From Elusimicrobiota bacterium (lineage in GTDB: Bacteria > Elusimicrobiota > Elusimicrobia > FEN-1173): DNA of 64,000 nt. The translations under genes and the position numbers were made by a program. Where the stretch lies: positions 39,262 through 103,261 of the forward strand of contig JAEURZ010000003.1 in assembly GCA_016788905.1 (NCBI GenBank), given 5' to 3'. Positions 21,888 through 51,041 of the stretch are shown piece after piece. The notes beneath the pieces are model-generated. The model saw only the letters and a list, made by a program, of their open reading frames with translations, was not told where the DNA came from and did no database searches. Numbering within the stretch: position 1 is the stretch's first letter; each line of letters begins with the position of its first letter.

Positions 21888-24800
21888 ATGGAAAAAATGA
21901 CTTTTCTGCCAAAATTAAATCCGATATTGCGTCATTTGAGTGTGATCCTTTATGTGTGCACTCAAGTGGTATTTACGCATGCCGCTGAATCCGGATTTTG
22001 GGAGGAACGTCGCAAAAGCCGATCTCTCATTGGCTCAACGTATGCGGCGCTTCCAACGTCCTCCCTCCCTGGGATGGAACGAGTGACTAAAAATCTCGGT
22101 ACGTTGTCGGCCTCTCTCCATTCTTCCATTTCAAACCTCGGTGGCCATGCCCCTTTATCTCACGTCATTCGAGCCATTCCCCACGAATTAGGAAGCATTC
22201 GGAATATTTACCCACCCCAATCTCCCGAAAACCCAATCGTTGTCCTTCTTCAGGACGTCCATTGGAATATCGACGCCCAAAGGAATTTGAGCCGTTTGAT
22301 TCAAGAATTATCTTCTTTCCAATGGAAGGATGGAAAAAGCACAGAAATGGTTCTGGCTCTGGAAGGGGCATTTGGCGCCATCGATATCTCCGCCTTTAGG
22401 AACTACGGTCACCCGACGATTTTGAGGCGAGTCGCTGATCGGTTACTATTGGATCGCCGCATTGCTGGGCCGCTCCATGGACTTCTATCGGGGGAAAAAA
22501 TTCCCGCCCGCATTGTGGGCGTGGATGATCGGCGTCATTACCAGTCCAACGTCATGGCTTACCGCACCGCCATTCCGCATCAAAAAAGCCTCCGCAATCA
22601 ACTTTTCCAAAAACGAAGAGAGTTCGTTAAGCGTCAGAATACCGTTTTCAGCAAAGGCCTCAAATCCTTTGATTATGAGGCACGGTCCTACCACGAGGGG
22701 AAAAAGAGCTTAAGCCATTATTCCCGTATTCTGGCGAGCACGTATTCGGGAAATAAACAAACGTTCGCGCGAGAGAACCCCACCCTGTCCATTTTCCTTC
22801 AAGCGGTGGAGATGGAATCTTCTCTTGATTTCAATCGGGTTGAACGAGAACGCGGGCAATGGCTCAATCAATTGACCCATTTTTTATCAGCGGAAGGAAG
22901 AAATTCCTTAATTGAAGCTGGCATCTCTTATCGATTGGGACAGATTAGTTTGTCGGATTTTTATCAACACCTCATTGCGGTGGGTGGCACGAGGGCCCCT
23001 TTGGCAAATTTCCCAGCGATGGCGGCCTATACCAATTACGTGCTTTTAGGGGAACGGGTGGACCCAGGGAAACTTTTCGAAGAAGTCACCCGGTTGGAAA
23101 CGGCTCTCTATGACCGGTTGGCGGAAAGCCAAGAGGCAAAAGCCTTGGTCAAGGACACTCGAGAGCTTGATCTTTCGCTCCGGTTGGTTGATTTCGCCCT
23201 CACTCCCCCAGAGTGGGAGGCTTATAAGCGTTGGGTGCCTGAAAATTCCAATTTGGAAATTTTTGAGCGGTTTTATAGGGAAGCAGAAGCGCGCGATGGG
23301 ACCATGGCGGGGGCCCTTCAGTCCAGTTTGATTTTGTCTAAAGGGAACAAGGGTCCACTCGGTCCCCGCCCAACGCCTGCGTTGGGGATTTTGGTGGCCG
23401 GGGGCTTTCACGGGGAGGGAATAACGAAACGATTGGTGAACGCAGGGATCGGGGTGATCACGGTGGTCCCCCGAATTAAAACGTTGGATGACAAACCGGG
23501 GCTGGCCTTGTCTGTCTTTACCCAAGATCGGACCCCGCTTGAAAAACTCGTGTCTGGGGAAAAATTGTTCCTTTCAGAACCGGTGTTTGATCCCTCACGC
23601 CAAGCGTTGACCGCACTGGCCTGCGCCGCCACGGGGGCGGCGGATGGTCTCGCCATACCCCCCGGTGAAATCTCCAATCTATTACCTACCCCATTGGCCG
23701 ATCTTCCCACCCAAGTTCAGACACCATCCCCCCATACGGGTGTGGTCTCGATCCAAGCGAGAGGTGGCGAAGTCACCGTTACTTCAACACTTGAAAATCA
23801 AGGAGGACAGATCCTCTCCCTCACTGAATCCCAGGCGGGAAGAGGATTGCCCCAACCCGAACCCCTTCGCGGGTATTCCTGGGAACAATTGGTTGCGGCG
23901 ATGAGGCCCTTTATCGCCAGCGGGGGAAAAGACGAATCCTTTTATCGGGGGGTCGTATGGGATTTGATATTAGACCCTCGCCGGACCAAAAGACTGGGTC
24001 CGTTGCTCTCACGCCAAGCGGTGGACCCGGCACAGGCCATATCGGAATCCATCGACAACGGCCAAGATGGTGTTCTTCGACGGTTTGAACCGGATGTTCG
24101 GCCCGTCGGGCGACGCGGGGTGGGAGGGATTCAGATATTCAATGATCTCAAATCCAGCGCTGATCGCGTTGTCATTACTTCTTCCCGTGACGGGCTCAAT
24201 GGCGTTGAATTTACTTTCTGGAAAGAGGGCGGTGAAATTCGATTTACATATAAAATTCTTTATGTCTCCGAATGGGGAGACGAAAATATTAATGCTCTTT
24301 TGCCAGCCCTGTCAAAAGATATCGCCACGGAATTGGTTTTTCGCCTTCCTCAGGGGACGAAAATCGACGTTCGCTGCGCTCTTTCGGCCGAAGAAACGGG
24401 CCGCCGTCTATCCTTTGTGAGAAAAAAACTGCGCTTGAATACCCGTTCGCCTATCGACGTTAATGGGACGAATGTCGATCAAACAGGCGAATACAAACAC
24501 GGGGGCCTCACGCGTCCGGTATCGGCCACGGAATTGCCTCCCGTTCACGTCACCATCAACCCAAACGGATACTCGGTTACAGATGAGGGCATTGGCATGG
24601 GTTTGAAAGAGATGTTTGAGGACTATCTCTTCCCCTACAAGACAACCAAATCGATGACCACTCCCCATGGAGAAGTTGATTATTATTACAAACCGGGCTC
24701 CGGTCGGGAGACAACGATCGCATCGTTCATCCCATCGAGAGAAATTGAATCTCTCTCGCCCTCTCCGGAAGGGACTCCCCTCAACGTCATTCCGGAACTG

Positions 24801-27800
24801 TGCTTGGTCTTTCCCGATGGTGCCAACCTGACGGAAGATCGAGGGACCATTGACTTAGTGCCATCCGATCAACGCGTCACTTCCGAAATCGCGGGGATGA
24901 AGCGTTTGATTGACCGATGGACGAATCCAAGGCTTTCCATCGAAGAACGGTTTGCCCTACTGAACACTTTGGCCGTATTCTTAAGGGCAAAACAACCTCG
25001 GGCCGAGAAAGGGTTGACGAGGGACAATCTTCAAACCTGCACAGATCTCTTGTGGTATCTAAGCAAGAAAATCCTCCCTTTGTTAAAACAGGACAGGGAA
25101 CAAGGAAAGACGTTCCTTCCCAACACCGAGGAATGGCTTTCTTTTGAGGGGAAAAGCGGCGTCATTCTTTTGGATACAGATATTTTTGAACCGAACGCGG
25201 CGGATTTCATCGCTGCAGGGATGTCCGATGTAACGGAAAACCCACTGTGGGCTCCATTGGATAAGCGGATACGTCATTTTTATCTGGCGGATTTGAGCGC
25301 GGCCCCTGCGGTGATTCTCGTGGGCAGTGGGGAAACAGTTATTGTTGATCGGACTGTCTTTGAGCGAGAAAGTTCTGACCCGGAAATCCTGTTGGAGAGA
25401 ATTCGAAAAAGTATTGATACGGCCTGGGGAAAATCCAGCCAAACGTTAACAAAACAATCCCCTTCCAAAAAGTCTTGGGTTCAGAGGCATTCCCTCCGTA
25501 TCGCCTCCTTTTTTTTGGCCCTGCTGGTCGCCGCTTCGCTCTGGATGACCTGGACTGTTGATGGAAAATTTGAGAATGAACCGGTTGAATTCGTCCCCCA
25601 TCAGATGACTCTAACTCCTGGTGCGATCGGATGGTCAGCCCCCAGTTGGGTCGATTCGGAATGGTGGAGTTCGTTTTTCTCATTAGACAAGGAACTTAAA
25701 CCGCGCAAACCCTATGGACGGATCATCGGTTTAGTGGATTCTCCTTATCTGGTTAAAGGGTTTTACCCGCATCTTACTGGCGACGGTTCATTCAAATCAG
25801 CGGGCGACCTGACCTCCCGGATGGAGGGACCTTCTAAGTCAAAAATAAGCCTTATGGTCGCCGTAACAAAGGAAAGAAACGAATCCATCCCTTTGCTTGT
25901 TCCTTACCACGGACAAGTGGACGCCAAGAGCGTTAGAATCCATATCCCTGGAAGACCTGCGGAGGCCTTACCACTCGCATACGAATCGGGACAACCGGTG
26001 GTTCATCCTCTAACGAGAGGATCTTTTTCCCTCTCATGGGACGTTTGGGTGGCTGAGAAGCAATATTTTAGTTACCGAAACCTACCTCTACCACCCAAAG
26101 AAATCGAGAATTTCCCCTCCGAATGGGCAGCGGTCCTTGATCCTTTGCAATCCGCGCACGACGAAAAAAAACTTTCGGCCATTAAACATCTGATGGGACG
26201 CTATTTCGCCTACGATGCCGGTAAAACCTATGGATTTGATGGCACCAGTTGGGCCAGCACCGCTAAACCCTATTTGGAAAGAGGAGAACGAATTCCAATT
26301 GTCTGCAACACATCAACGTTATATTTTTATCTGATGGCGCGTTATGTGGGCCTTCCCGCCATATATGTCGAATTAGAAAATTCAGGAAGTGAGAATATCC
26401 TATACCGGGATCTGTCCGGCCACGCGCAGGTCGTCGTAAAAGTGGGATACGAATGGGTCGTGCTTGAAACGACCAATGTAATGCCTCTTGTCCAAAGAGC
26501 GTTTCCCTTAAAACCGAGTTCACTATGGGGAGATATTCAATCCCAAACTAAAAATTTAAATTTAATACTAATCGGTTTTTCTGGTTTTTTATTTTTTATG
26601 GCTCTATGGAAGGGGGGACCTCAATCAAAGGAATATTTTTCAAGGAATTATTTTAACCGGTTGAGATATTTTTTAAAAAACAGAGTTCATTTAAAGGGAT
26701 TCGATATACAGGTCTCCCCATGGGGAATGATCAAAAAAACCAGAACCACAAATCCTTTTGGAAATCCTTCGATTGAAACAGAAACTCATCTGGGTGTTCT
26801 TTATCAAACCAAAGGATCAACGTTTACCCCGTTGAAATATGAGCATGGCAAATCCGACTACTTTCTGTCTCTTAAAGGGGAATTCGAAGGCGTCATAATC
26901 AAATTAATATTTCTCTTGGTGTTCAGCGTCATCTTTGGATCAATTGGATGGGATATTTTGTCATCTTCATCGAATCTGACGACCCCGATCCTAATGGGAA
27001 TATCCATATGGATGTTGATCACCTTTTTGGTTTTGCATCGACTTCCTGTGTTAATTCGCCTCAATGAGAATGGATTAAAACTTGTTTCTGTTCCCTATCC
27101 AAAACGATTCGTTCCTGAGGTTTTAGAGGTTAAAGACGGCGCCTATTTGGATTTTGGGGGAGGTGATTTCTATTGGCTGGGACTTGAATCGGGTCACCTT
27201 AAGAAAATTGTTATTCCTGGACTTCGGGAAATTAAACCTGTTTCTAAACCCGGAGGGAAAGCCGCTTTAGTGGCATTGGTTAAAGATCAAAAAAATGGAT
27301 CCAGATTTATTGTATACGAACCCCAGGGGACTCATTTAAGGGAAGTATGGAGTATTCCCTCTCCCCCAAGCCTTGCCCCTCTGTATGATTGGAAATCATT
27401 ATACTTGTTCCCATCGAACCAATACGTCATTGCCTACCAAACCATCAATTCGGATATGACGGAATTCATTACTCTTGGCCAACCCATTCCGCCTATTCCG
27501 TCACAAATTCCGTTGAGGCATCTTTATCCATTTCAGAACAGTTTTATTAGTGAAGTGGGGAAAATCCCGATTTTTCCTGGGGATAGTCATCCGGAAATTA
27601 CACCTCGTCTGGATGGGAGACCGTATTACATCTTTTCAGACGATATTGTTGGGTTCCCAACAGGTGAGCGGGATGACGAGTCCAAATATTTAACTTTGTT
27701 CAATATTTGGTCGGGTGACCGGTTGGGGGAAATACCCATTCAAGGAATGGACAGCATCTATAACCCTATCGTTTTAATTGATAATACTGTTTTCAGATTA

Positions 27801-30800
27801 TCTCGCGCGACTGACGAAAAGGGATCCCCTAAACCCCAACTGCAAATCATCGATTCAACGGGGTATCGGTCCATTGACCTCGCCCCATGGGCAGGGCTTT
27901 CCAAAACTATTTCCGAGGTTTGTGCCAGAGTGACAGGGCATCCTCGAGATCTGTTTATCACCTTCGATGCTAGGCACAGCCAGATCTCCAAATACACGAG
28001 TGGTGAATATATAAATTCCGGCCTTCCCTTCTATTTCGGGTTCGACCGCCAAGACGGACTGACAATATTTGGAACGGAATTAAATCGTGTGTTTACCAAA
28101 TCTCCCTTGAAACCCCCGGAATTGAAAGAATTAAAGAAAAAATTGGATGGACCTGCCTTGGAATCCCTCGAGAACCGAATGTCGTATATGACAGAATGGC
28201 ATCCCCACGAATTGTTCATTCCCTGGGTGGATTCCACCATCCCACCGGATGTTAAAGATCGGTTGGATGGGGTGGCTCGCGAAAATCTAGAACGGCAGGA
28301 TTGGGTGCGGGAGGTTTGCCGCGCCCTATACGTTTTGAATCGAGACCCGGCTGGACAGGCAGGGCCAATTCTCAGACGTTACATGGACTTATTGGAGATG
28401 GATCCCGAATTGGAAGAAACCCTTCGCGAAAAACTCTTTACCCCTCAAACAATGCCTGGGGTTGACTATCCTATGGAGCCCATCGTTTTTTTATGGCGGT
28501 CGCCCAGCGAACAACCCCCTCTCCCTTTAGAGGTGGAATTTTTCCTGTCCCTGTTGTCGAAAGAATTCGAGGATATTTTGAAGTGGGAAACCGAAAGAGC
28601 CCCCACCTTCCCGACCGACATTGTCATAAACCCTTTAAGTGACGACCGTTCTTTGTCCCGGTTTTTGGGGGCCGCCCGAAAGACCTCAACAGAAGAGTTG
28701 GATGGCCCTGATGGGTTCTCAAAACTTAAGGACACCTACGATGAGTTAAGCCCCCAGGACCATGCCGCCCCATCTGAAATCGTGGGGCCAGCCAACAATC
28801 AGGGGCTGGCCGAACCGTTGTGGCTGCGGGAACTGGTACAAAACGCTCGGGATGCGGTAAGAGAAGCCCGCCGAACCGGGGCTTTATTACAAGATCCGGC
28901 CATACGAATGGGAAGTTATTTGAACCGAGAAGGAGAGCGTCCTCGTCTGGTCGTTAGCGTTAAAGACGGGTTAGGAATGTTTTTAAGCCGTTTGGTCAAA
29001 AAGGTGTTGGACCCGGACGAAACGACAAAGACCTTAGCGGACGATCTGCTGGAACAACTGAGAAAGGGAACGGACACCACCACCCGCACGCAAGGGGTTA
29101 TCGACACGCTCGTGCAACCGGAAAAACGTGACGATGCGGCCCTCCGCCAGGCGATCCAGGAGCAGATTGAGGGCAATGAAATTAATGAAGCGTTGGCGCG
29201 GAGAATGGCGGATGCGTTTTCGTTGGACATGACTCCCACCAGCTCGGGGTTTATTGGGATTGGTTTCTTTACAGCTTTTCAGGCCGATGAAGTCATGGTG
29301 CGAACGGGGCGCGGTGGCTCTCTTCATGAAATTAAATTGCGGACCGTGAGGGCGTCTGACGATAGGCGGATTGTGGACATTCAGCTCTTGTGGGCTCGAA
29401 AAATCTCGGATCCCCAGGGAAAGTATCAAGGAACGGATGTTCAATTGGGGTTCGATCTCCCACGAGAGGATGACCCCACCTTTGATCGTGAAGTGATTCG
29501 GGCCCGAATACGCAACGCCCATTTTCATTGGATGGCCATGAATTACCTCAGTGGGGTATCGGATGTGGACATCTATTGGAACGGCGTCAACCTACGGGAG
29601 TCCACCTCCCCAGGAGCGACTGTTGGGGAAATGGCCTCGGTTTTAGGATCCCGTCATCCCGGCCGCCTTTTGGTGGATGAACTCCGCATCCAAGAGCTCC
29701 CGAAAGCTCTCGTGTCCTTGGTCCCGACTTGGGTCCAACGGGTGTTGACCGAGGAAGGTGTTAACATTAAGTACCCCCGCACCCGGTCCTTCGTTCGAAC
29801 ACGACGCGCCATCCAATCCCCGGAAAACGATGCGCGTCCCATGGCCCTCTTGGCCCTGCGCACGGTCTATGTTCATTGGCGCAACGGAGGAGTGGTGGAC
29901 GGGTTGCCGCCTTATGAGGAGTATCGCCTCCAATCACCGTGGAACAGTTATCCGGCGGATGAAAACGTTCGGAGGGATGCGGCGTTCCTCTTGCAGACGA
30001 ACGGGAGCAAGGACGGTCAGGAGGAGTTTTGGGGCCGGTTTGAAAAGGAGTATCTATCGGCTCGGGGACGTTGGGTCCAACTTATGCTGGAAGTGGCTGA
30101 TGATCGAGACGCCTTCTATCGTCAAGCTCTGCCCCACGAGTTTTCAACCGCATTGGATGCCGCCCGGGAAAAGGGTGTATTGCTCGGTCTTTCCCCTGCC
30201 CGGGCGCCTCCCGCTTCCTCCGACGATTTGAGTCGGCGCGTTCTTCGTCCTCACCTGGCACGCTGGGCACGGCTCTTTCTCGAAGGACGGGTGAATATCG
30301 AAGGTCGTTCGGTGAGAGAATGGGCCGGTGTAACACCATCTGGAGAGGACTGGACTCAATCCCTATGGCAAGTTGTTCCCGAAGGGGCCACCCTTCCTCT
30401 TTCTCAGATCGTGGCGACCATGGACCCAACCGCGACCCCTGTTTTGGCTGAGGACACAACACAAATGGAATTATCGATTCGGGCCCTCTCAGAGGCAGGG
30501 AGCGTTTTTGCGGCGCGGTTGCCCCTTCCTCCCACCCACATGATGATCGACGAACGCCTCTTGTGGGCCTTAAAACTTTTTTTACTCAAAAATGAACTGT
30601 CTCCTCTATTGGACGCATTTTTGATGACGCTCGGGCGGCATAAGAATGGGTCAGCCGTCTCCTTTTACGAGCAATGCTTGCGTGAAGGGTTGGATAAAGC
30701 CGACCTGAAACGAAGGTTGGTGTCCCTGGGTAATATTTCCGACATCGACGCGTCCATTGATCACCAGATCCAACTCTTACGCGAAAACCCGACCCATCAG

Positions 30801-32036
30801 CTGGATACCTTACTGAAACCCAATGTTTCGTCCTCCTCCACGGTCCTTCCTGGGATGATTCCTGCGTTTACCCGGGCGCTTCTTTACCGGTTTGTGAAAT
30901 GGTTTGGCGCAAAGCGGGGAACATCCTTCTATGTGAAATGGGGATCGGCTTTTTCCGAGGGTGTCACTGTCCTAGGACTTCCTTTGCTCTTGATGGAGAT
31001 CGGGGGAGGGGTATTTAATCCCCTCTCTGCGCCAATGATTTTTTGGCTGATGTACGCCTCTGGAAAATTATTGTTCGTGCGGGCCCACCCCCAGGGGAAC
31101 AGCTTATTTTACGGGATGGCTTTTGCGCCAGTGGGAGTGGCGTTCTTTGTTGTGATGTTTCTGGGCTTATCGGTTCCCGGGATCCTTCTTATCGTCGCGT
31201 CGGAAGTGGTTCCCCATGTTCGCAACAACACCGCCTATTGGCATAGGTTAAGTCCAGGAGAACGATTGGCTTTGGAGGTTTCCGCCGCTCAGGACGCCCT
31301 TGCCCGTGGGGTCCGTGTTCGTGATGCGGATGAGCTCAGAGAGGAAACCTTTCAATTGTTGCTGGGTGCGGATTCCCTTGGCCAGCGTTGGACCCATCAC
31401 CTGCGCGTGGAGGACATCTCTTTGGAACAATCCCGTTTTAAAGAGAAGTATGGGCAGGTCCAACGGGAGGTCTTTTCTCCCCAAATGCCGCGTTCTTTGA
31501 GGGAAACCGTGTTGGAACAATTATTTCGAAAAATGGGACCGGCTCAACGTTTTGAATCCATGTGGGGGGAAGAAGATTCGTCCACGAATGCTGTTTTGAT
31601 TTTGTTGGACGAATTCCGAACCAACCAATTGGAGGAAATTGTTACTAAGGCTATTCAGGTCTCTCTCCAGCAGAAAAAACAATTGCTTTGGGTCGCTGAA
31701 AATAGGCCCCTCAAACTCCGGGCCGAGGCTCTTCTTCGAGATCGGGGGATTTTCGTTCAAATCCCACTCTTGAACGATGGAACCGATTTTGTTCGTGTGG
31801 GACGATTGGGGAGAGTCAACGACGGAGCCCTTGAACAACTCACCCAGCCCCAACGGAAAGATAAAGTGATCAGACAACTCTCCATCTGTTTGGGGGAAGA
31901 ATGGACGATCCAAAAAACAACCCAGGAATCCTTGTTCCAAAACGCGAATATCTTTTTCTTCGATCGCTGGCTTTCTGTTCATAAACTACTGGAAGAAGGA
32001 CAGCGCCTCGCCCACTTCATTGCTCAAATGGCGTAG
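21888..32036 (+). CDS. giant multi-domain membrane protein 2 (3382 aa): signal peptide, TIKI/TraB-like N-domain, transglutaminase-like Cys-protease core, TM segments, Hsp90/sacsin-type GHKL ATPase, C-terminal polytopic region
   Basis: Signal-like 'LSVILYVCTQVVFTHA'. N-domain 'IVVLLQDVHWN', 'ARDGTMAGAL...VAGGFHGEGI'. TGase-like 'VCNTSTLYFYLMARYVGLPAIYV...GHAQVVVKVGYEWVVLETTN'. GHKL boxes 'RELVQNARDA', 'VKDGLGM', 'SSGFIGIGFFTAFQADEVMV'. Many TM helices. Confidence 0.75.
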   Translation: MEKMTFLPKLNPILRHLSVILYVCTQVVFTHAAESGFWEERRKSRSLIGSTYAALPTSSLPGMERVTKNLGTLSASLHSSISNLGGHAPLSHVIRAIPHELGSIRNIYPPQSPENPIVVLLQDVHWNIDAQRNLSRLIQELSSFQWKDGKSTEMVLALEGAFGAIDISAFRNYGHPTILRRVADRLLLDRRIAGPLHGLLSGEKIPARIVGVDDRRHYQSNVMAYRTAIPHQKSLRNQLFQKRREFVKRQNTVFSKGLKSFDYEARSYHEGKKSLSHYSRILASTYSGNKQTFARENPTLSIFLQAVEMESSLDFNRVERERGQWLNQLTHFLSAEGRNSLIEAGISYRLGQISLSDFYQHLIAVGGTRAPLANFPAMAAYTNYVLLGERVDPGKLFEEVTRLETALYDRLAESQEAKALVKDTRELDLSLRLVDFALTPPEWEAYKRWVPENSNLEIFERFYREAEARDGTMAGALQSSLILSKGNKGPLGPRPTPALGILVAGGFHGEGITKRLVNAGIGVITVVPRIKTLDDKPGLALSVFTQDRTPLEKLVSGEKLFLSEPVFDPSRQALTALACAATGAADGLAIPPGEISNLLPTPLADLPTQVQTPSPHTGVVSIQARGGEVTVTSTLENQGGQILSLTESQAGRGLPQPEPLRGYSWEQLVAAMRPFIASGGKDESFYRGVVWDLILDPRRTKRLGPLLSRQAVDPAQAISESIDNGQDGVLRRFEPDVRPVGRRGVGGIQIFNDLKSSADRVVITSSRDGLNGVEFTFWKEGGEIRFTYKILYVSEWGDENINALLPALSKDIATELVFRLPQGTKIDVRCALSAEETGRRLSFVRKKLRLNTRSPIDVNGTNVDQTGEYKHGGLTRPVSATELPPVHVTINPNGYSVTDEGIGMGLKEMFEDYLFPYKTTKSMTTPHGEVDYYYKPGSGRETTIASFIPSREIESLSPSPEGTPLNVIPELCLVFPDGANLTEDRGTIDLVPSDQRVTSEIAGMKRLIDRWTNPRLSIEERFALLNTLAVFLRAKQPRAEKGLTRDNLQTCTDLLWYLSKKILPLLKQDREQGKTFLPNTEEWLSFEGKSGVILLDTDIFEPNAADFIAAGMSDVTENPLWAPLDKRIRHFYLADLSAAPAVILVGSGETVIVDRTVFERESSDPEILLERIRKSIDTAWGKSSQTLTKQSPSKKSWVQRHSLRIASFFLALLVAASLWMTWTVDGKFENEPVEFVPHQMTLTPGAIGWSAPSWVDSEWWSSFFSLDKELKPRKPYGRIIGLVDSPYLVKGFYPHLTGDGSFKSAGDLTSRMEGPSKSKISLMVAVTKERNESIPLLVPYHGQVDAKSVRIHIPGRPAEALPLAYESGQPVVHPLTRGSFSLSWDVWVAEKQYFSYRNLPLPPKEIENFPSEWAAVLDPLQSAHDEKKLSAIKHLMGRYFAYDAGKTYGFDGTSWASTAKPYLERGERIPIVCNTSTLYFYLMARYVGLPAIYVELENSGSENILYRDLSGHAQVVVKVGYEWVVLETTNVMPLVQRAFPLKPSSLWGDIQSQTKNLNLILIGFSGFLFFMALWKGGPQSKEYFSRNYFNRLRYFLKNRVHLKGFDIQVSPWGMIKKTRTTNPFGNPSIETETHLGVLYQTKGSTFTPLKYEHGKSDYFLSLKGEFEGVIIKLIFLLVFSVIFGSIGWDILSSSSNLTTPILMGISIWMLITFLVLHRLPVLIRLNENGLKLVSVPYPKRFVPEVLEVKDGAYLDFGGGDFYWLGLESGHLKKIVIPGLREIKPVSKPGGKAALVALVKDQKNGSRFIVYEPQGTHLREVWSIPSPPSLAPLYDWKSLYLFPSNQYVIAYQTINSDMTEFITLGQPIPPIPSQIPLRHLYPFQNSFISEVGKIPIFPGDSHPEITPRLDGRPYYIFSDDIVGFPTGERDDESKYLTLFNIWSGDRLGEIPIQGMDSIYNPIVLIDNTVFRLSRATDEKGSPKPQLQIIDSTGYRSIDLAPWAGLSKTISEVCARVTGHPRDLFITFDARHSQISKYTSGEYINSGLPFYFGFDRQDGLTIFGTELNRVFTKSPLKPPELKELKKKLDGPALESLENRMSYMTEWHPHELFIPWVDSTIPPDVKDRLDGVARENLERQDWVREVCRALYVLNRDPAGQAGPILRRYMDLLEMDPELEETLREKLFTPQTMPGVDYPMEPIVFLWRSPSEQPPLPLEVEFFLSLLSKEFEDILKWETERAPTFPTDIVINPLSDDRSLSRFLGAARKTSTEELDGPDGFSKLKDTYDELSPQDHAAPSEIVGPANNQGLAEPLWLRELVQNARDAVREARRTGALLQDPAIRMGSYLNREGERPRLVVSVKDGLGMFLSRLVKKVLDPDETTKTLADDLLEQLRKGTDTTTRTQGVIDTLVQPEKRDDAALRQAIQEQIEGNEINEALARRMADAFSLDMTPTSSGFIGIGFFTAFQADEVMVRTGRGGSLHEIKLRTVRASDDRRIVDIQLLWARKISDPQGKYQGTDVQLGFDLPREDDPTFDREVIRARIRNAHFHWMAMNYLSGVSDVDIYWNGVNLRESTSPGATVGEMASVLGSRHPGRLLVDELRIQELPKALVSLVPTWVQRVLTEEGVNIKYPRTRSFVRTRRAIQSPENDARPMALLALRTVYVHWRNGGVVDGLPPYEEYRLQSPWNSYPADENVRRDAAFLLQTNGSKDGQEEFWGRFEKEYLSARGRWVQLMLEVADDRDAFYRQALPHEFSTALDAAREKGVLLGLSPARAPPASSDDLSRRVLRPHLARWARLFLEGRVNIEGRSVREWAGVTPSGEDWTQSLWQVVPEGATLPLSQIVATMDPTATPVLAEDTTQMELSIRALSEAGSVFAARLPLPPTHMMIDERLLWALKLFLLKNELSPLLDAFLMTLGRHKNGSAVSFYEQCLREGLDKADLKRRLVSLGNISDIDASIDHQIQLLRENPTHQLDTLLKPNVSSSSTVLPGMIPAFTRALLYRFVKWFGAKRGTSFYVKWGSAFSEGVTVLGLPLLLMEIGGGVFNPLSAPMIFWLMYASGKLLFVRAHPQGNSLFYGMAFAPVGVAFFVVMFLGLSVPGILLIVASEVVPHVRNNTAYWHRLSPGERLALEVSAAQDALARGVRVRDADELREETFQLLLGADSLGQRWTHHLRVEDISLEQSRFKEKYGQVQREVFSPQMPRSLRETVLEQLFRKMGPAQRFESMWGEEDSSTNAVLILLDEFRTNQLEEIVTKAIQVSLQQKKQLLWVAENRPLKLRAEALLRDRGIFVQIPLLNDGTDFVRVGRLGRVNDGALEQLTQPQRKDKVIRQLSICLGEEWTIQKTTQESLFQNANIFFFDRWLSVHKLLEEGQRLAHFIAQMA

Positions 32037-32186
32037 GATCACCTTCCGAAAAGAGGAAATGGTTTAATCCGAAATTCCCCGTTGGATCGCGGAATTTGAC
32101 AAAAAAATTGGGCCTTTTCCTTTCACAAAAAAAGTTTGTCCGTAGTCCCTGCGACCGCGTTGGCGGAAATCTTCCGTCGAAAACAC

Positions 32187-32230
32187 TCCCTCTCCCTCCC
32201 CCTCTCCCGTCAACGGGAGAGGGAAACCCC
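32187..32230. repeat. G/C-rich hairpin repeat, copy 3 (CCCTCTCCC...CCCTCTCCCG-tcaa-CGGGAGAGGG)
   Basis: Inverted repeat read directly; same core as the copies at 32966-33030 and 33148-33204. Confidence 0.6.
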
Positions 32231-32247
32231 TTCAGCGTTACGGGAAT

Positions 32248-32670
32248 TTATCCGCCGAAGCGGAGGGTCGCTTTGGCGGTGCCGTCCCAACCGCAATAGA
32301 AGACGGGGGCGCCTTCTTCTTCCCAGTCTCGGGCGGCGGTTAATAACATTTCCGGGATCGCCATGCCGGATTCATTGAGAAAATCTTTTGTTCCGATCAG
32401 GGCGGCCCGGGGCGTTGATTCGCCCGGCAGTTGAACTGCACCGCCAAAACCCTTTTCCCCAAAATCTTGAAATCCACTGACCGTTTGCGTTCCTTGGCTG
32501 TTCCAGAGGGCTACGCGGTGAAGGTCCTTGGCGCAGGGGTGTTGTGATTGCGCGGCTAAACTGGCGGCGATCGTTAAAAAATCGCGCTGGGCCTCGATGC
32601 TGGCGGGCCAGGTTTGGAAACCGCGGAATCGCCAGGCCGGGTCGCCGGTGGGGTGGTCAAGGTTGTCCAT
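32248..32670 (-). CDS. hypothetical protein (140 aa)
   Basis: ORF co-oriented with and overlapping (14 nt) the upstream DUF420 gene; no motifs I recognise. Confidence 0.4.
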   Translation of the reverse strand: MDNLDHPTGDPAWRFRGFQTWPASIEAQRDFLTIAASLAAQSQHPCAKDLHRVALWNSQGTQTVSGFQDFGEKGFGGAVQLPGESTPRAALIGTKDFLNESGMAIPEMLLTAARDWEEEGAPVFYCGWDGTAKATLRFGG

Positions 32671-33142
32671 ATTTTAGGAAGAAATAAATTCCCACTCCGG
32701 TTAGGCATACATACATCCATATGGGCCAGGTCCAGCGGGCCCATTTACGGTGGCGATCGAAATTTCCTTTAAGTGCGAAGGCCAGGGTGGTGAGAACCAG
32801 GGGGACGACCACTGTGGCGAGGACGGTGTGGGACGCTAGGATGGTTAAGTAGATTGTGCGAATGGTGCCGGTTCCTAGAAATCGCGTGGTTCCTACCCGG
32901 GCGTGGTATTCGAGGTAAGAGAAAAGGAAGATTGTGGAGAGCAGGAAGGCGGTGCCCATGGCTAGGCGGTGGAGGGCGACCCCCCTCATCCGGCCCTTCG
33001 GGCCACCTTCTCCCACCGTTGGGGGAGAAGGAAAAACTTGACCCGTTGTGCGGATGGTTTGGATGGCGATCCATCCGATTGTCAAGAATATGGCGGTGGA
33101 GCCGTTTAGTAATGCGTGGAGAGCGGGGCGGGATAGCGTCAC
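32657..33142 (-). CDS. DUF420-family (YozB-like) membrane protein with an in-frame repeat-derived insertion
   Basis: Four TM layout. 'LNGSTAIFLTIGWIAIQ', 'HRLAMGTAFLLSTIFLFSYLEYH' and 'KGNFDRHRKWARWTWPIWMYVCLTGVGIYFFL' align with B. subtilis YozB-type DUF420. An extra ~18 aa 'FPSPPTVGEGGPKGRMRG' in loop 1 is encoded by the repeat copy at 32966-33030. Confidence 0.7.
   Translation of the reverse strand: MTLSRPALHALLNGSTAIFLTIGWIAIQTIRTTGQVFPSPPTVGEGGPKGRMRGVALHRLAMGTAFLLSTIFLFSYLEYHARVGTTRFLGTGTIRTIYLTILASHTVLATVVVPLVLTTLAFALKGNFDRHRKWARWTWPIWMYVCLTGVGIYFFLKYGQP
32966..33030. repeat. G/C-rich double-hairpin repeat, copy 1 (inside the DUF420 coding sequence)
   Basis: 'CCCCTCATCCGgcccttcgggccaCCTTCTCCCAccgttggGGGAGAAGG' is near-identical in architecture to the copy at 33148-33204. 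Confidence 0.6.
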
Positions 33143-33147
33143 AGTTA

Positions 33148-33204
33148 CCCCCCCCCTCTCCCGGTCCTTCGGACCACCCTCTCCCGCGGGCGGGAGAGGG
33201 TATA
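33148..33204. repeat. G/C-rich double-hairpin repeat, copy 2 (immediately 5' of the DUF420 gene start)
   Basis: 'CCCCCCCTCTCCCGgtccttcggaccaCCCTCTCCCGcgggCGGGAGAGGG': hairpin 1 (ggtccttcggacc) plus hairpin 2 (CCCTCTCCCG/CGGGAGAGGG). Confidence 0.6.
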
Positions 33205-33226
33205 AGAAAAGTATCCCATCAAAAGA

Positions 33227-34897
33227 CTATCGTAATAAAATCAGAACCAATATTTGGGTGGAGAGGACCCGCAAAAGCATGGTCAGGGGGTAAACCGTGG
33301 CGTAGGACAGCGCGGGGAGTTCCGAGTTCATGTAGGTGTTGGCGAAGGCCAGGGCGGGGGGATCCGTCATGGAGCCAGCCAAGACTCCACACAGGGCGGT
33401 GAAGTTGGTTTTATGGAAATAGCGAGCCGCCAATCCCACGACCAGGAGGGGCACCAAGGTGATGGCCGCGCCCCAAAGGACCCAAGAGACGCCACTTCCG
33501 GACATCAAAGTCTCGATGAATTTTCCGCCCGATTTTAACCCAACGCAAGTTAAGAAGAGGGAAATACCCAGTTCTCGGATCATTAAGTTGGCCGACACGG
33601 GCATATGCCACACCAACGAACGCCATTGGCCCACACGGGCGAGCACGATGGCCACGATCAGGGGTCCCCCCGCCAAACCCAGTCGGACCGGAGCGGGTAG
33701 GCCAGGGATCGTGAGAGGCAAACTTCCGAAAATGACCCCGACCGTAATTCCCACCAAGAGAGGAATGATTTGGGGATCGTTCAAGTCTTTGGGGGAATTT
33801 CCAAGCACGCCGGCGGCTTCGTTGATCGCTTCCCGCTCACCCACCATGAGGAGAGTGTCCCCGAATTTCAAGGTCAAATCGGGACGGGCGGCGAACTCCA
33901 AGTTCATTCGTGTCAGGCGGGACACGGTCACGCCAAAACGTTTCTGCAAAGAGAGTTCTTCAAGGGATTTCCCAAGGATGGTTTTGCGTGTAACGATCAC
34001 CCTCTGGGTCGAAATATTGCTTTCCACTTCGCGCAAGTCAAGTTCCGACTTTTTGCCGATGATGGCTTCAAGTGTTTTCAGCATTTCGTGGGGACCCACC
34101 GCTAAAATAACGTCGCCCACCGCGAGTGTGGTGGTGGGGTGTGCCACGGTCACTTCCCCGTTGTGCATGACCCTGGAAATAACGACAGACGCCGCCGGCA
34201 GGCCGGGGACATGCCCGATCGGCAAGCCGATGAGCGCGCTGTTGGTCACTTCCAGATTGGCGGAAAAAAGTTTTGGGGCATTTTCCCGGCTTTCGGCGGA
34301 GAACTGGTCTAATTCTTTTTCCGGATGGATTTTGAAAATGGTCTTGATGAAAATCATTGAAAGGATTATTCCGATGACGCCGAACGGATACGCGACCGCG
34401 TAGCCGAGCCCTGGCATTTTGACGATTTCGGAATGGGCCCCAAAAACGTCGCGGAGGGCCTGCTGGGCCGCCCCGAGGCTGGGGGTGTTCGTGGTGGCGC
34501 CGGAAAGGACCCCGACCGCCGCCTCCACCGGGACACCGCCTATGAAATGGGCCACGAGAGTCATCCCCACGCCAAGAAGTACCACGGAAGCCGCCATGAT
34601 GTTGAGGGGGAGACCTCCTTTTCTTAAGGACGAAAAGAACCCGGGGCCAACTTGCAGGCCGATGGCGTACACGAAAAGGATGAGCCCAAATTCACGGATA
34701 AATTCCAGGACATGTTCGTTGATGGTGATCCCGAAATGACCGAAAATGAGACCCGTAAAAAGGACTCCGGCAATGCCGATGTGAATGCCCCAAAGTTTGA
34801 ATTGGCCCAACGCGAGACCGAGCCCCGCAACGAGACAGATAACCGTTACCGCGTGGGGAACGGATTCGGGATTAAGAAGTGTGGCGAATAAGTCCAT
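33227..34897 (-). CDS. YidE/YbjL-family transporter (aspartate:alanine exchanger-type permease halves flanking two TrkA-C/RCK_C domains)
   Basis: 'MDLFATLLNPESVPHAVTVICLVAGLGLALGQFKLWGIHIGIAGVLFTGLIFGHFG'; duplicated permease domains with central soluble RCK_C-like region; the ATG at 34897 is internal to the longer ORF-track ORF. Confidence 0.75.
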   Translation of the reverse strand: MDLFATLLNPESVPHAVTVICLVAGLGLALGQFKLWGIHIGIAGVLFTGLIFGHFGITINEHVLEFIREFGLILFVYAIGLQVGPGFFSSLRKGGLPLNIMAASVVLLGVGMTLVAHFIGGVPVEAAVGVLSGATTNTPSLGAAQQALRDVFGAHSEIVKMPGLGYAVAYPFGVIGIILSMIFIKTIFKIHPEKELDQFSAESRENAPKLFSANLEVTNSALIGLPIGHVPGLPAASVVISRVMHNGEVTVAHPTTTLAVGDVILAVGPHEMLKTLEAIIGKKSELDLREVESNISTQRVIVTRKTILGKSLEELSLQKRFGVTVSRLTRMNLEFAARPDLTLKFGDTLLMVGEREAINEAAGVLGNSPKDLNDPQIIPLLVGITVGVIFGSLPLTIPGLPAPVRLGLAGGPLIVAIVLARVGQWRSLVWHMPVSANLMIRELGISLFLTCVGLKSGGKFIETLMSGSGVSWVLWGAAITLVPLLVVGLAARYFHKTNFTALCGVLAGSMTDPPALAFANTYMNSELPALSYATVYPLTMLLRVLSTQILVLILLR

Positions 34898-46520: not shown

Positions 46521-46592
46521 CGGGGCGTAGCGTAGTGGTAGCGCACTCGCTTGGGGTGCGAGAGGTCGTGGGTTCAAGTCCCACCGCCCCGA
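46521..46592 (+). tRNA. tRNA-Pro (anticodon GGG)
   Basis: Cloverleaf by hand: acceptor CGGGGCG/CGCCCCG, anticodon stem CTCGC/GCGAG, loop TTGGGGT, T-arm GTGGG-TTCAAGT-CCCAC, discriminator A; no encoded CCA. Confidence 0.85.
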
Positions 46593-46695
46593 TGTGTCGG
46601 ACTGAAACGTGGTGTAAAAATAAAAAGGTGGCGGTTTTTTTATTCCAAGCTCCGTTGTCCCGCTTAGGCCTACACGGTCCCCGTCGTTCTCTCCT

Positions 46696-48701: not shown

Positions 48702-48708
48702 AGTCTGA

Positions 48709-48756
48709 ACGGAAGGCGGGCGGAAACATTAATTTACGGGGTGTAGCGCAGTTGGG
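48709..48756 (+). repeat. direct repeat A1: upstream flank plus 5' 19 nt of tRNA-Pro(CGG), duplicated
   Basis: 'aacggaaggcgggcgga...ttacggggtgtagcgcagttgg' recurs at 48855-48902, differing only in a ~9-nt central patch. Confidence 0.6.
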
Positions 48757-48854: not shown

Positions 48855-48902
48855 AACGGAAGGCGGGCGGAGGTAGTGATTTACGGGGTGTAGCGCAGTT
48901 GG
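48855..48902 (+). repeat. direct repeat A2 (authentic copy running into tRNA-Pro(CGG))
   Basis: Same sequence as A1; the 98-nt spacer 48757-48854 carries the hairpin 'cgtgtgccgagtagggcacacg'. Confidence 0.6.
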
Positions 48903-48956
48903 TAGCGCGCTTGGTTCGGGACCAAGAGGTCCGGGGTTCAAGTCCCCGCACCCCGA
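48884..48956 (+). tRNA. tRNA-Pro (anticodon CGG)
   Basis: Acceptor CGGGGTG/CACCCCG, D-arm GCGC-AGTTGGTA-GCGC, anticodon stem CTTGG/CCAAG with loop TTCGGGA, T-arm CGGGG-TTCAAGT-CCCCG, discriminator A. Confidence 0.85.
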
Positions 48957-48964
48957 TTTTTAAG
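48944..48964 (+). repeat. att-like 21-bp direct repeat, copy 1 (tRNA 3' end + 8 nt)
   Basis: 'ccccgcaccccgatttttaag' is repeated perfectly at 49145-49165. Confidence 0.65.
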
Positions 48965-50967: not shown

Positions 50968-51041
50968 GCCTCCGTAGCTCAATTGGATAGAGCGGCTCCG
51001 TCCTAAGGAGAAGGTTGGTGGTTCAAGTCCGCCCGGGGGCG
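50968..51041 (+). tRNA. tRNA-Arg (anticodon CCT)
   Basis: Acceptor GCCTCCG/CGGGGGC (one G-U), D-arm GCTC-AATTGGATA-GAGC, anticodon loop GTCCTAA, T-arm GGTGG-TTCAAGT-CCGCC, discriminator G. Confidence 0.85.

Follow-up and report, generated by a model that had tools for sequence, protein, structure and literature searches.

Three copies of a probable BoxC/PIT/TMECO intrastrand triplex motif, one of them in frame within a DUF420 gene, in an Elusimicrobiota bacterium

Introduction

What are the short, G/C-rich repeats that crowd around a DUF420 membrane-protein gene in the genome of an Elusimicrobiota bacterium, and how did one of them come to lie within the gene? The original prediction – made from the letters of the window (the whole 64-kb stretch of DNA that was analysed) – was of a family of double hairpins with three related copies, one inserted in frame into the DUF420 gene, where it is tolerated as a Pro/Gly-rich segment, and one situated at the gene's 5′ end. 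The three copies are indeed there, and their coordinates can be refined.

Among the repeats to which they might be compared, RIME and Bru-RS are alphaproteobacterial. For some 30 years the BoxC/PIT/TMECO motifs have been known while neither their function nor their origin has been agreed; they have been described as strictly intergenic and unlinked to mobility genes. Earlier work on BoxC and PIT is said to include that of Bergler (1992) and of Bachellier (1990s), and Hoyne and Maher (2000) reportedly also worked on BoxC/PIT/TMECO.

Results

Anatomy of the three copies

All three copies (A, B and C) share one orientation, the G-rich strand being the minus strand of the window, which for the DUF420 operon is the sense strand, and all follow one plan: a C-rich arm is followed by two G-rich arms, the first of which is complementary to it. 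Copy A (32188-32223, minus strand) consists of CCCTCTCCC (32223-32215), the loop GTTGAC, GGGAGAGGG (32208-32200), the loop GGA and again GGGAGAGGG (32196-32188). Copy B (32980-33031, minus strand) opens with CCTTCTCCC (33031-33023), the loop CCAACGGT and GGGAGAAGG (33014-33006), followed by a T, a mini-hairpin GGCCCGAAGGGCC (33004-32992), the third strand GGATGAGGG (32991-32983) and a final GGG. Copy C (33148-33200, minus strand) is built likewise from CCCTCTCCC (33200-33192), the loop GCCCGC, GGGAGAGGG (33185-33177), a T, the mini-hairpin GGTCCGAAGGACC (33175-33163), the third strand GGGAGAGGG (33162-33154) and a G6 run that extends to 33148. Copies B and C have a 33-nt block in common and differ within it at compensating positions only; relative to A and C, the arm CCTTCTCCC of copy B carries one compensated change, and its loop of 8 nt is 2 nt beyond the published range.

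Copies B and C each allow 9/9 Watson-Crick pairs and 9/9 valid purine-motif triads, and by the same triad rule the third arm of copy A, GGGAGAGGG, which fits the published pattern, also scores 9/9. Here only the hairpins were folded computationally, the triplex being read from the triad rules. The double hairpin of the original prediction is thus half of the picture: a second hairpin does exist in B and C, but the element is a hairpin plus a triplex-forming third strand, and this third G-rich arm, which reads as a C-run on the plus strand, had been missed. The copy within the gene, ambiguously numbered at the time, is that at 32966-33030. As RNA, copy A has a minimum free energy of -23.7 kcal/mol; folding z-scores of the sense strand are weak (-0.8 to -2.6), and in the minimum-energy fold of sense-strand C it is the tail, not the first G-rich arm, with which the 5′ arm is paired.

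Searches of the window set the three copies apart from its background. The pattern CCCTCTCCC-N2-12-GGGAGAGGG has two exact matches against none in 100 shuffles, and CCYTCTCCC has 12 against a mean of 2.4, with 8 of the 12 inside the three elements; the mini-hairpin pattern alone, found twice in the window where 0.97 are expected, is not significant. Fuzzy searches and a general triplex finder recovered A, B and C and nothing else in the 64 kb (shuffled windows gave 0.05-0.55 fuzzy matches per pattern, a control that covers the fuzzy patterns and not the triplex finder). Rfam scans, run at gathering as well as at E-value thresholds, yielded tRNAs and sub-threshold noise, with no match to the elements, and a terminator scan of 31900-33400 placed no terminator-like site at any of the three copies, the 3′ sides of which are G-rich.

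Family identity

The best explanation of these features is that A, B and C are copies of the BoxC/PIT/TMECO family of intrastrand triplex motifs, and we consider this very probable. Copy A matches the published pattern CCCTCNCCC-N3-6-GGGNGAGGG-N3-GGGNGAGGG exactly (PMC4666352). The hairpin part of that pattern (CCCTCNCCC, 3-6 nt, GGGNGAGGG) is present in A and C as CCCTCTCCC, a 6-nt loop and GGGAGAGGG, and we judged the CCTTCTCCC, 8-nt loop and GGGAGAAGG of copy B to be its equivalent; a second G-rich arm, GGGNGAGGG, with the potential for triads is likewise present. The 3-nt second loop (of the TTA or CCG type) is found in A, as GGA, whereas in B and C it measures 14 nt, composed of T and GGYCCGAAGGRCC. 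Because of this loop, B and C are a variant and not canonical members: their second loop is enlarged and holds a 5-bp mini-hairpin, which is an optional occupant of loop 2.

In its broader features, too, the resemblance is close: the three-arm logic of the sequence, the conserved words CCCTCTCCC, GGGAGAGGG and GGGTGAGGG, a location that seems to be mostly intergenic, the occasional inverted pairs and the variability of loci among close relatives are common to both. Departures from the published account are the long second loop of B and C, the triple variant CCTTCTCCC / GGGAGAAGG / GGATGAGGG of copy B, the position of B (within the DUF420 coding sequence and apparently read in frame, while A and C are intergenic), the Elusimicrobiota host and an association with DUF559 genes that is absent from that account. 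The family, then, is a known one; what is new is the long-loop variant, the host phylum and the coding context. Loops in the published search were limited to 1-6 nt, the published distribution comprises 262 proteobacterial genomes plus Synechocystis, and E. coli copies were described as 'always intergenic' (PMC4666352). Our searches of the literature with long sequence words (loop-closing bases included), peptides and 10-mers returned nothing relevant. The loop-closing bases of the copies here are absent from E. coli copies.

Copies in other genomes

That further copies should exist was borne out on a large scale in other genomes, with none elsewhere in the window. The 23-mer at the core of B and C occurs in at least 120 genome stretches from many phyla: alpha-, beta- and gamma-proteobacteria, with complete chromosomes among the matches listed, together with Planctomycetota, Armatimonadota, Acidobacteriota, Gemmatimonadota, Myxococcota and Fraserbacteria. 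Copies are also found on IMG/VR viral contigs, and in a metagenome hairpin scan most of the matches listed carry the GGGTGAGGG tail. The 33-nt right part of copy B is identical to the consensus of 93 copies from other genomes among the matches listed, and the right part of copy C is identical to a Rhodocyclales copy.

These copies reveal covariation. Among the matches listed, 114 of 126 B/C-type copies have 9/9 triads; position 7 of the purine arm and position 3 of the third strand are A/A in 96 and G/G in 25, with A/G or G/A in none; and at a pair of the mini-hairpin most copies have C-G, about 10 have T-A, 3 have T-G and none has C-A. (In the MAFFT alignment of 124 copies the variable loop was left unaligned.) With respect to flanking genes the copies are distributed as >E> 31, <E< 15, >E< 24 and <E> 7, with an excess at the 3′ ends of genes and in convergent intervals and a deficit in divergent ones; between co-directional genes the G-rich strand is in the mRNA sense with a bias of 53:31. 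Density is 1-3 per Mb-sized replicon elsewhere and three in 64 kb here, all within 1 kb, a clustering for which the family model does not account.

Of 125 copies elsewhere, 2 pass a strict filter for coding context. Pfam confirmed two, one of which had passed that filter. In Rudaea a copy splits an N6_Mtase domain, and in a Rhodocyclales MAG a UvrA-like protein carries copies; both are in the same frame as the DUF420 insert (GEGGPKGR...). In Shinella a copy underlies an annotated dihydrolipoamide acetyltransferase coding sequence, as an overlap of annotation only.

The DUF420 gene and the insertion of copy B

The host of copy B is a DUF420 (CtaM/YozB-type) membrane-protein gene (32657-33142, minus strand) of 161 aa with a GTG start at 33142, represented at NCBI by MBL8023034.1 (161 aa). 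Its Pfam match (PF04238, E = 1e-35) begins at residue 53. Downstream lies a conserved partner, ORF140 (32248-32670, minus strand), which overlaps the DUF420 stop by 14 nt, has no Pfam match and keeps its synteny in relatives L001-L006 and L249; copy A comes next, 25 nt past the ORF140 stop and between convergent genes.

Copy B is in frame. The inserted block (32980-33039, minus strand) comprises 60 nt, AAGTTTTT plus copy B, and supplies 20 codons of loop 1, where copy B translates as FPSPPTVGEGGPKGRMRG; the block is free of stops in 5/6 frames. Compared with the empty site ATTCGCGCCCAACGCGTTGGCCTTCACCGC of L250 (P0008), the window has 60 nt more at the element and 9 nt more just upstream, and insert-free orthologues measure 138-145 aa against 161 aa in the window. 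The Pfam match, these lengths and the empty site together uphold the predicted insertion into loop 1. AlphaFold models the protein as a four-helix bundle (mean pLDDT 88) in which residues 31-50, between helices 5-34 and 49-82, have a pLDDT of about 53, and the TM1 codons upstream of the insert differ from those of relatives by 7-8 synonymous versus 1-2 non-synonymous changes, and so are under purifying selection. The low-confidence loop between helices and the selection on TM1 favour the view that the Pro/Gly-rich insertion is tolerated, and copy B is probably read through as a loop of about 20 residues. An ATG in its third strand, GGATGAGGG (32987-32989, minus strand), is the start of a truncated 110-aa product in JGI gene calls: P0004 (110 aa) is 99% identical over 68% of the query, and such calls occur in L001 and L002.

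Copy C and variation among relatives

The end of copy C lies 5 nt before the GTG at 33142, in keeping with the copy expected at the gene's 5′ end. The native DUF420 codons 2-6 (33127-33140, minus strand), ACGCTATCCCGCCC, encode TLSRP and form with ACCCTCTCCCGCCC in the 5′ arm of copy C (33201-33188) an imperfect 14-nt direct repeat (12/14). Copy C is polymorphic: it is absent from the syntenic relatives L003-L007, the gap being bounded by the 14-nt direct repeat, and L003-L006 have a single copy of the repeat sequence with no element between. Either the window lineage gained it by insertion or L003-L006 lost it by deletion. An upstream ORF of 24 codons (33145-33219, minus strand; ATG at 33219, TAA at 33147-33145) crosses copy C, its stop codon falling 2 nt short of the DUF420 GTG; its probable homologue is the N-terminal extension (MDFFSY...) that DUF420 carries in the relatives.

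The other copies vary as well. Orthologous, less perfect versions of copy A are present in L003 and L006. At the copy B site, L003-L006 show rearrangement, with 2-3 tandem 18-nt hairpin units, and L248 and L249 show decay; the G-run has nine bases (G9) in the window versus eight (G8) in L001/L002. The alignment of orthologues, proposed as a check on the insertion, thus gave recognisable remnants of the element in close orthologues and no insert at all in more distant ones. Seven sequences have loop-1 inserts of 15-34 residues which, though the frame is kept in every relative, are hypervariable in sequence and length even between orthologues that are 85-88% identical. In a neighbour-joining tree the insert-bearing DUF420 clades stand among insert-free ones, a placement that implies at least three gains or several losses in the history of copy B.

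Association with DUF559 genes

In other genomes the genes that lie between motif pairs encode DUF559 proteins (Vsr-like nucleases; Pfam E ~1e-43). Complete motifs, often as inverted pairs, flank 11 of 16 DUF559 genes sampled regardless of motif presence, and in these cassettes 5-45 nt separate the tail from the start codon that follows (as with GGGTGAGGGGAAGTTATG in L167). A tblastn search for DUF559 found none in the window or in L001-L007. A, B and C are direct and not inverted, whereas the proposed cassette is defined by inverted motifs within about 100 nt of a DUF559 gene, and they are at most solo derivatives of such cassettes. E. coli strains without ycjD have a different island after sapF, and so offered no clean empty site for the cassette borders.

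Discussion

In single-stranded G-rich DNA the C-rich arm and the first G-rich arm would form a 9-bp hairpin, onto the purine arm of which the second G-rich arm would fold back antiparallel, giving G.G-C, A.A-T and T.A-T triads. Single strands of TMECO do adopt, in vitro, an intrastrand triplex that is stable, by CD and NMR; in E. coli, DMS footprinting in vivo did not detect the triplex, and double-stranded oligonucleotides remained duplex (PMC4666352). E. coli TMECO loci are hypervariable, and polymerase stops have been reported (PMC4666352). By analogy, the motifs here may act as obstacles to replication and so promote slippage and template switching. Such events would account for what the relatives show: indels flanked by direct repeats of 8-14 nt, tandem expansions of 18 nt and a change in the length of the G-run. 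Since footprinting in E. coli did not reveal the triplex in vivo, it is by inference that we attribute this instability to structure. Copy B would have entered DUF420 as a 60-nt block; with a length that is a multiple of three and no stops in 5/6 frames, it would be translated as a disordered TM1-TM2 loop of cytoplasmic type, merely tolerated by the protein.

Could the elements instead be of the REP/REPIN or MITE type, moved by a transposase (RAYT, IS200/IS605 TnpA or DDE), with the triplex incidental? They are short palindromes, dispersed and for the most part outside genes, favour gene 3′ ends and convergent intervals, occur on viral contigs and, in the case of copy C, come and go. But across 91 copies flank match lengths equal those of the shuffled control, giving no target-site duplication; there are no terminal inverted repeats beyond the hairpin and no conserved GTAG or CGTC tag in 124 aligned copies; copies are few (3 in 64 kb, 1-3 per large replicon); and near-perfect covariation of the third strand is not expected of a transposase site. 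No Y1 or RAYT gene was noticed, which is weak evidence given that the Pfam scan took in four ORFs around the elements; Holder et al. (2015) never found mobility genes near TMECOs (PMC4666352). We regard transposition of this kind as quite unlikely. A role in the RNA of the DUF420 operon, with A as terminator or 3′ stabiliser and C as a leader with a Shine-Dalgarno-like or masking tail, is also unlikely. All three copies have the G-rich strand in the mRNA sense, as does the family by its 53:31 bias; the tail of C lies 5 nt before the GTG, much as the tails of DUF559 cassettes precede their starts, and sense-strand C has its alternative fold. Against this, no copy is followed by a U-tract (for which reason copy A was rejected as a terminator), the terminator scan was empty at A, B and C, sense-strand z-scores are weak, Rfam gave no match, and such a role makes no sense for copy B inside a coding sequence. 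Moreover, PIT elements in E. coli have no promoter or terminator activity, and purine-motif triplexes are not formed in RNA (PMC4666352).

The remaining alternatives concern copy B above all. Were its loop-1 insert a selected protein feature – a Pro/Gly-rich linker or binding motif, with DNA structure irrelevant – one could point to the frame kept in every relative despite rearrangement (15-34 residues, seven sequences) and to the same frame in the Rudaea and Rhodocyclales coding copies. Yet frame retention follows from the need to keep TM1 joined to the rest of the protein, the insert is hypervariable among orthologues of 85-88% identity and missing from many others, and it is modelled as a low-confidence loop; selection for the peptide is decidedly unlikely. 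Local origin, in which hairpins arose de novo by template switching in a hypervariable loop and resemble the family by coincidence, draws on the identity of the 5′ arm and loop of copy C with native coding DNA of L003, on the likeness of the B loop CCAACGGT to a palindrome, CCAACGCGTTGG, at the empty site, and on the tandem expansions of hairpin units at the same spot in relatives. The 33-nt right part of B, however, is identical in every base to 93 copies from unrelated genomes among the matches listed, and that of C to a Rhodocyclales copy; identity across genomes makes independent origin impossible; complete chromosomes among the matches argue against assembly contamination. Template switching may reshape copies, but leaves their origin unexplained. 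This reading is largely refuted and extremely improbable. Further ideas were set aside: a G-quadruplex in the G-rich strand, the covariation of triads already accounting for the third arm, and a CsrA site and an anti-Shine-Dalgarno, both unsupported.

Other known systems resemble the elements in part. Rickettsia palindromic elements (RPE), for which Ogata et al. (2000) reportedly described in-frame insertions in protein-coding genes, are likewise short palindromic repeats with most frames open that end as surface or loop segments tolerated by the protein, a resemblance confined to in-frame insertion. They are 100-150 nt long, AT-rich, restricted to Rickettsia and relatives and without a triplex-forming third arm, while those described here measure 36-60 nt, are GC-rich and occur in many phyla, with an Elusimicrobiota host. 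REP/BIME and REPIN-RAYT elements too are extragenic, GC-rich palindromes of short length that favour the 3′ ends of genes, single or in inverted pairs and without target-site duplications; but the copies examined have neither the GTAG/CGTC tag, nor hundreds of copies per genome, nor, among the four ORFs scanned around the elements here, a RAYT, are conserved across phyla rather than species-specific, and enclose between inverted pairs a DUF559 PD-(D/E)XK nuclease in place of a Y1 transposase. MITEs, such as Coxiella QMITEs (PMC5896051) and Neisseria Correia elements, are small, non-autonomous and add peptide segments or new starts, and differ in their terminal inverted repeats and target-site duplications, neither of which was found here (91 copies).

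The DUF559 genes suggest a tentative answer to the question of origin. It is possible, if doubtful, that BoxC/PIT/TMECO motifs are terminal modules of an unrecognised compact selfish cassette encoding a DUF559 (Vsr-fold) nuclease, with solo and coding copies as its footprints. Such a cassette may range over at least Pseudomonadota, Deinococcota and Cyanobacteriota; and since motif pairs flank DUF559 genes, motifs that stand alone, inverted pairs with no gene between them (E. coli K-12 has such pairs) and coding copies such as B may be orphan cassette ends. We know of no DUF559 activity on triplex or hairpin DNA. The fold is that of a T:G mismatch nickase and a homing endonuclease: a homing endonuclease of a group I intron (PMC3424549) belongs to the Vsr/DUF559/DUF2726 group of PD-(D/E)XK proteins, and Caulobacter VsrA is a further case of the Vsr fold (PMC12907096). 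The window is without a DUF559 gene, and the link is one of genomic association alone.

The locus bears on the biology of the family in several ways. Elusimicrobiota is a host phylum far beyond the published range, and a long-loop variant with a mini-hairpin would escape loop-limited searches; its base-for-base identity with proteobacterial copies speaks for either horizontal spread or a very strong constraint. Read inside genes for DUF420, an N6-methylase and a UvrA-like protein, the motif may be a source of variation in protein loops, and is a source of misplaced start-codon calls. The relatives show, as in a natural time series, how such sites change: short direct repeats bound the indels, hairpin units expand in tandem and a homopolymer run alters its length by slippage, all in agreement with the instability reported for the family. 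If the association with DUF559 holds genome-wide, the spread of the motifs would be directly testable; and the cassette, if real, would give the BoxC family both an origin and a mechanism of dispersal.

Organization of the elements

The three G/C-rich elements A, B and C lie at a local operon whose sense strand is the minus strand. Read 5′ to 3′, the stop codon (TAG, 33229-33227) of an Asp-Al_Ex/TrkA_C transporter gene is followed by copy C (33200-33148) and, after five bases, by the GTG (33142) of the DUF420 gene, where the original prediction had placed a copy at the gene's 5′ end. Copy B (33031-32980) lies within this gene. ORF140, whose start overlaps the DUF420 stop, precedes copy A (32223-32188), which begins 25 nt past the ORF140 stop; beyond it a convergent ORF of 3382 aa ends. 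The first 14 nt of ORF140, beginning with its ATG, belong also to the end of DUF420 (32657-32670), an arrangement suggestive of translational coupling. ORF140 has no Pfam match, is kept in synteny among relatives, and bears what we take to be a loose likeness to the nucleotide-binding region of P-type ATPases.

Words shared by A, B and C are far more frequent in the 64-kb window than expected by chance: the palindrome CCCTCTCCC-N-GGGAGAGGG matched twice in the window and never in 100 shuffles, while CCYTCTCCC matched 12 times against a mean of 2.4, eight of the 12 falling within the elements. Fuzzy searches with three patterns (a 33-nt right part; hairpin plus tail; loose hairpins) yielded nothing in 64 kb other than A, B and C, against 0.05-0.55 matches per pattern in shuffled windows. 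The count of the small hairpin by itself was not significant in the window. Elsewhere in the window, near-duplicate 48-nt segments (48708-48755 and 48855-48902) and a further pair (46536-46593 and 48900-48957) extend into the first bases of adjoining tRNA-like sequences; a cluster of three tRNA genes occupies 46521-46592, 48884-48956 and 50968-51041.

The repeat had been described as a double hairpin. The repeat is real, but its anatomy is one of three arms – a C-rich arm, its complement, and a second G-rich arm. Copy A reads CCCTCTCCC-GTTGAC-GGGAGAGGG-GGA-GGGAGAGGG; copy C reads CCCTCTCCC-GCCCGC-GGGAGAGGG-(T GGTCCGAAGGACC)-GGGAGAGGG, followed by G6; and copy B reads CCTTCTCCC-CCAACGGT-GGGAGAAGG-(T GGCCCGAAGGGCC)-GGATGAGGG, followed by GGG. 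In both the long hairpin and the mini-hairpin, the changes between B and C are compensating, and the third arm mirrors the change in the long hairpin. When this arm is aligned antiparallel with the purine arm, all nine triads of B and of C are valid for the purine motif (G.G-C, A.A-T, T.A-T), and the same rule yields nine of nine for A, since its arms are identical. RNA folding recovered the hairpins, at −22 to −33 kcal/mol, but with z-scores that are only modest. Rfam holds no entry matching the elements.

A long-loop variant of a known family

A scan with the 23-mer GGGAGARGGTGGYCCGAAGGRCC, at one genome per species, matched at least 120 stretches, in keeping with the repeat family originally proposed. 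Among the matches listed, hosts included Rhizobium, Mesorhizobium, Shinella, Caulobacter, Brevundimonas, Azospirillum, Bosea, Lysobacter, Stutzerimonas, Legionella, Rhodocyclales, Planctomycetota, Fimbriimonas, Acidobacteriota, Gemmatimonadaceae, Myxococcaceae and Candidatus Fraserbacteria; 31 IMG/VR contigs also contain the 23-mer. Copies share a conserved block of ~50 nt in otherwise unrelated sequence and are few per replicon (1-3 in each of 16 plasmid records). In metagenomes, most copies of the A/C hairpin among the matches listed run on into NN-GGGGTGAGGG. Nine of nine triads are valid in 114 of 126 B/C-type copies, and in these 126 purine position 7 and third-strand position 3 were A/A in 96, G/G in 25 and mixed in none.

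The identity of the family was recognised via the E. coli ycjD locus, reached from the DUF559 genes discussed below: it is BoxC, described anew first under the name PIT element and subsequently as TMECO (Holder et al. 2015, PMC4666352). Copy A is an exact fit to the published pattern, CCCTCNCCC-N3-6-GGGNGAGGG-N3-GGGNGAGGG (PMC4666352), whereas B and C, with a second loop of 14 nt, fall outside it and thus constitute a long-loop variant. TMECO forms a stable class II triplex in vitro, leaves no triplex footprint in vivo, and has neither promoter nor terminator activity; 3610 copies were counted in 262 proteobacterial genomes, the 23 of E. coli K-12 being "always" intergenic; mobility genes were never seen in its neighbourhoods, and strain-to-strain variability at its loci is unusually high (PMC4666352). 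No terminator-like site coincides with A, B or C, and no target-site duplication was found at the copies tested. With gene orientation approximated by GC phase, copies were enriched downstream of genes and between convergent genes and depleted between divergent genes; the G strand is preferred in mRNA sense by about 2:1, a bias to which A, B and C all conform.

A probable translated copy within DUF420

The Elusimicrobiota MAG's 161-aa DUF420 protein (NCBI MBL8023034.1) had been predicted to carry an extra segment in loop 1 where the repeat sits, tolerated as an in-frame insertion, and both claims stand. Most homologues are 138-145 aa without an insert and carry RAQRV at the position of QTIRTTGQVFPSPPTVGEGGPKGRMRGV in the window; compared with the empty site of L250, a distant relative (ATTCGCGCCCAACGCGTTGGCCTTCACCGC), the window has 60 additional nt, comprising AAGTTTTT and the 52-nt element, and a further 9 nt just upstream. 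This T-rich lead-in also stands 5′ of some Mesorhizobium copies. The 60-nt block has a length divisible by three and leaves five of six frames open; comparison of the preceding 27 TM1 codons with three relatives gave 7-8 synonymous and only 1-2 non-synonymous changes, so these codons are translated; and AlphaFold predicts a confident four-helix bundle (mean pLDDT 88) in which the insert is a loop (pLDDT ~53) between helices 5-34 and 49-82. Together these make translation of copy B well supported. The Pfam match starts no earlier than residue 53, and JGI pipelines nevertheless call a 110-aa DUF420 (10001-10333 in L001 and L002, contigs of the same population), starting at an ATG inside the third arm GGATGAGGG (32987-32989). 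Triplex motifs with GGATGAGGG contain this built-in ATG after purine-rich sequence.

Coding copies are rare, only about two of 125 passing a strict coding-context filter. In a Rudaea MAG the motif splits an N6_Mtase domain (ORF residues ~257-280), and in a Rhodocyclales MAG two adjacent copies lie in a UvrA-like protein (residues ~470-525); both proteins use the frame of B (…GEGGPKGR…). A copy on Shinella plasmid NZ_OZ000533.1 (385083-385129) overlaps a CDS annotated as dihydrolipoamide acetyltransferase and is a candidate coding copy.

Rearrangement among relatives

Comparison was made with the syntenic L003-L006 (DUF420 85-88% identical) and the more distant L007 and L248-L250. All of these relatives have an empty site C: where L003 reads ...TATTCCCTCTCCCGCCCCGC, the window has ...TATACCCTCTCCCGCCC, then 48 nt consisting of element and TAACTGTG, then ACGCTATCCCGCCCCGC. 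The polymorphism is bounded by an imperfect direct repeat of 14 nt, of which the 5′ arm of C forms part. C might have been inserted in the window lineage or lost from L003-L006. Most DUF420 genes, including those of L007 and L250, begin exactly at the position of the window GTG, and the MDFFSY extension of L003-L006, homologous to the window's non-coding upstream ATG, is derived. From these start positions we favour C as the probable ancestral element, deleted between the repeats in L003-L006, over its gain in the lineage of the window.

A 24-codon upstream ORF (33145-33219, minus strand), whose first six codons are homologous to MDFFSY, crosses copy C and ends 2 nt before the DUF420 start. 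By this homology, DNA that is non-coding in the window, together with an arm of the element, appears to have turned coding in L003-L006, or the reverse. The upstream ORF contains the G homopolymer after C (33148-33156), 5 nt ahead of the GTG, so that the length of the run fixes where the ORF ends. The run has nine G in the window but eight in L001 and L002, where two SNPs are the only other differences in 1.2 kb; one additional G would join the upstream ORF in frame with DUF420.

At site B, the 3′ flank …GGCCGGATGAGGGGGG is retained in L003-L006, the 5′ flank (AAGTTTTT, C-rich arm, loop 1) in L003 only. The middle of B is replaced by 2-3 tandem 18-nt units GAGGGGACCTTCGTCCCC (L003 10141-10174; L004 ~10117-10170; L006 ~10114-10147), and in L004-L006 the 5′ arm is also lost, between CAACGG repeats. 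Each unit is a self-complementary hairpin that encodes EGxFVP, its loop the reverse complement of the window mini-hairpin loop. L248 has a diverged full element at site B and L249 arm and tail only; in a crude NJ tree insert-bearing DUF420 clades are interspersed among insert-free ones.

Copy A is orthologous but less perfect in L003 and L006, where a 113-nt insert bounded by ~17-nt repeats lies ahead of it. ORF140 and copy A are followed by an island of variable content, namely the 3382-aa ORF in the window (21888-32036), different 2204-2419-aa HATPase_c_3 ORFs in L004-L006 (L004 10962-18221; L006 10944-17558) and an IS66 transposase region in L003 (11100-13500). L006 carries copy A and the final ~75 nt of ORF140 a second time 9.4 kb downstream, on the far side of the island (20100-20330). 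Variation at the three sites matches the published link of these motifs with local instability, a match that does not prove a structural cause.

Association with DUF559 genes

At one motif locus, L045, a small ORF lies between two inverted copies. Genes of this type are DUF559 (Pfam, E ~1e-43), and tblastn found homologues at 13 loci, most flanked within 1-60 nt by inverted motifs (L045, L094, L204, L187, L209, L090, L167 and others). These 13 loci were preselected for motif presence, and we therefore drew an unbiased sample of 16 DUF559 genes (L282-L297) by tblastn in plasmid and chromid records, with 300-nt flanks each. A complete motif (8-nt arms with every triad valid, or the published pattern with at most one mismatch) lay within 300 nt of 11 of the 16, often two-sided and inverted. 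Strict hairpins occurred at 0.89/kb at the sampled genes, against 0.076/kb for extra copies in motif-selected loci. Hosts of flanked genes were Azospirillum, Sinorhizobium, S. meliloti, Shinella (exact B type), Deinococcus proteolyticus, D. aetherius, Methylobacterium, Neisseria, Photobacterium and E. coli (ycjD); the Sphingomonas flank has its own variant, CCCCTCCC/GGGAGGGG. Across many phyla, DUF559 genes have neighbouring motifs of the BoxC/TMECO type or lineage-specific variants of it.

In L094, a low-GC Legionella sp. MAG, DUF559 is flanked by two inverted exact B-type motifs (2403-2459 and ~2799-2830); the ~30 nt outside each are near-identical, which suggests that the whole unit may have been acquired recently. 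In E. coli sapF-ycjD-fabI (L287/L298), ycjD has as neighbours a TMECO and a partial second copy of its own 3′ end. Of 5426 complete E. coli genomes, 3374 contain ycjD, and strains without it have an MFS efflux island directly after sapF. E. coli also has five gene-less inverted TMECO pairs, always type A with type B (PMC4666352). Neither PMC4666352 nor the literature searched on DUF559 describes the association. The Vsr/DUF559 fold is known from both a mismatch nickase and a homing endonuclease (PMC3424549), and in Caulobacter, DNA damage due to a DUF559 protein arises in the absence of its partner methylase (PMC12907096). By tblastn, the window and its relatives L001-L007 lack a DUF559 gene, so that here the link is a hypothesis on origin only.

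The original observation and its interpretation were thus real and correctly read, of a family already known as BoxC/PIT/TMECO. What is new is a long-loop, hairpin-bearing variant of that family; its motif in Elusimicrobiota, base-for-base identical to proteobacterial copies; a well-supported translated copy, together with a natural series of rearranged descendants; and a testable link between triplex motifs and DUF559 nuclease genes.
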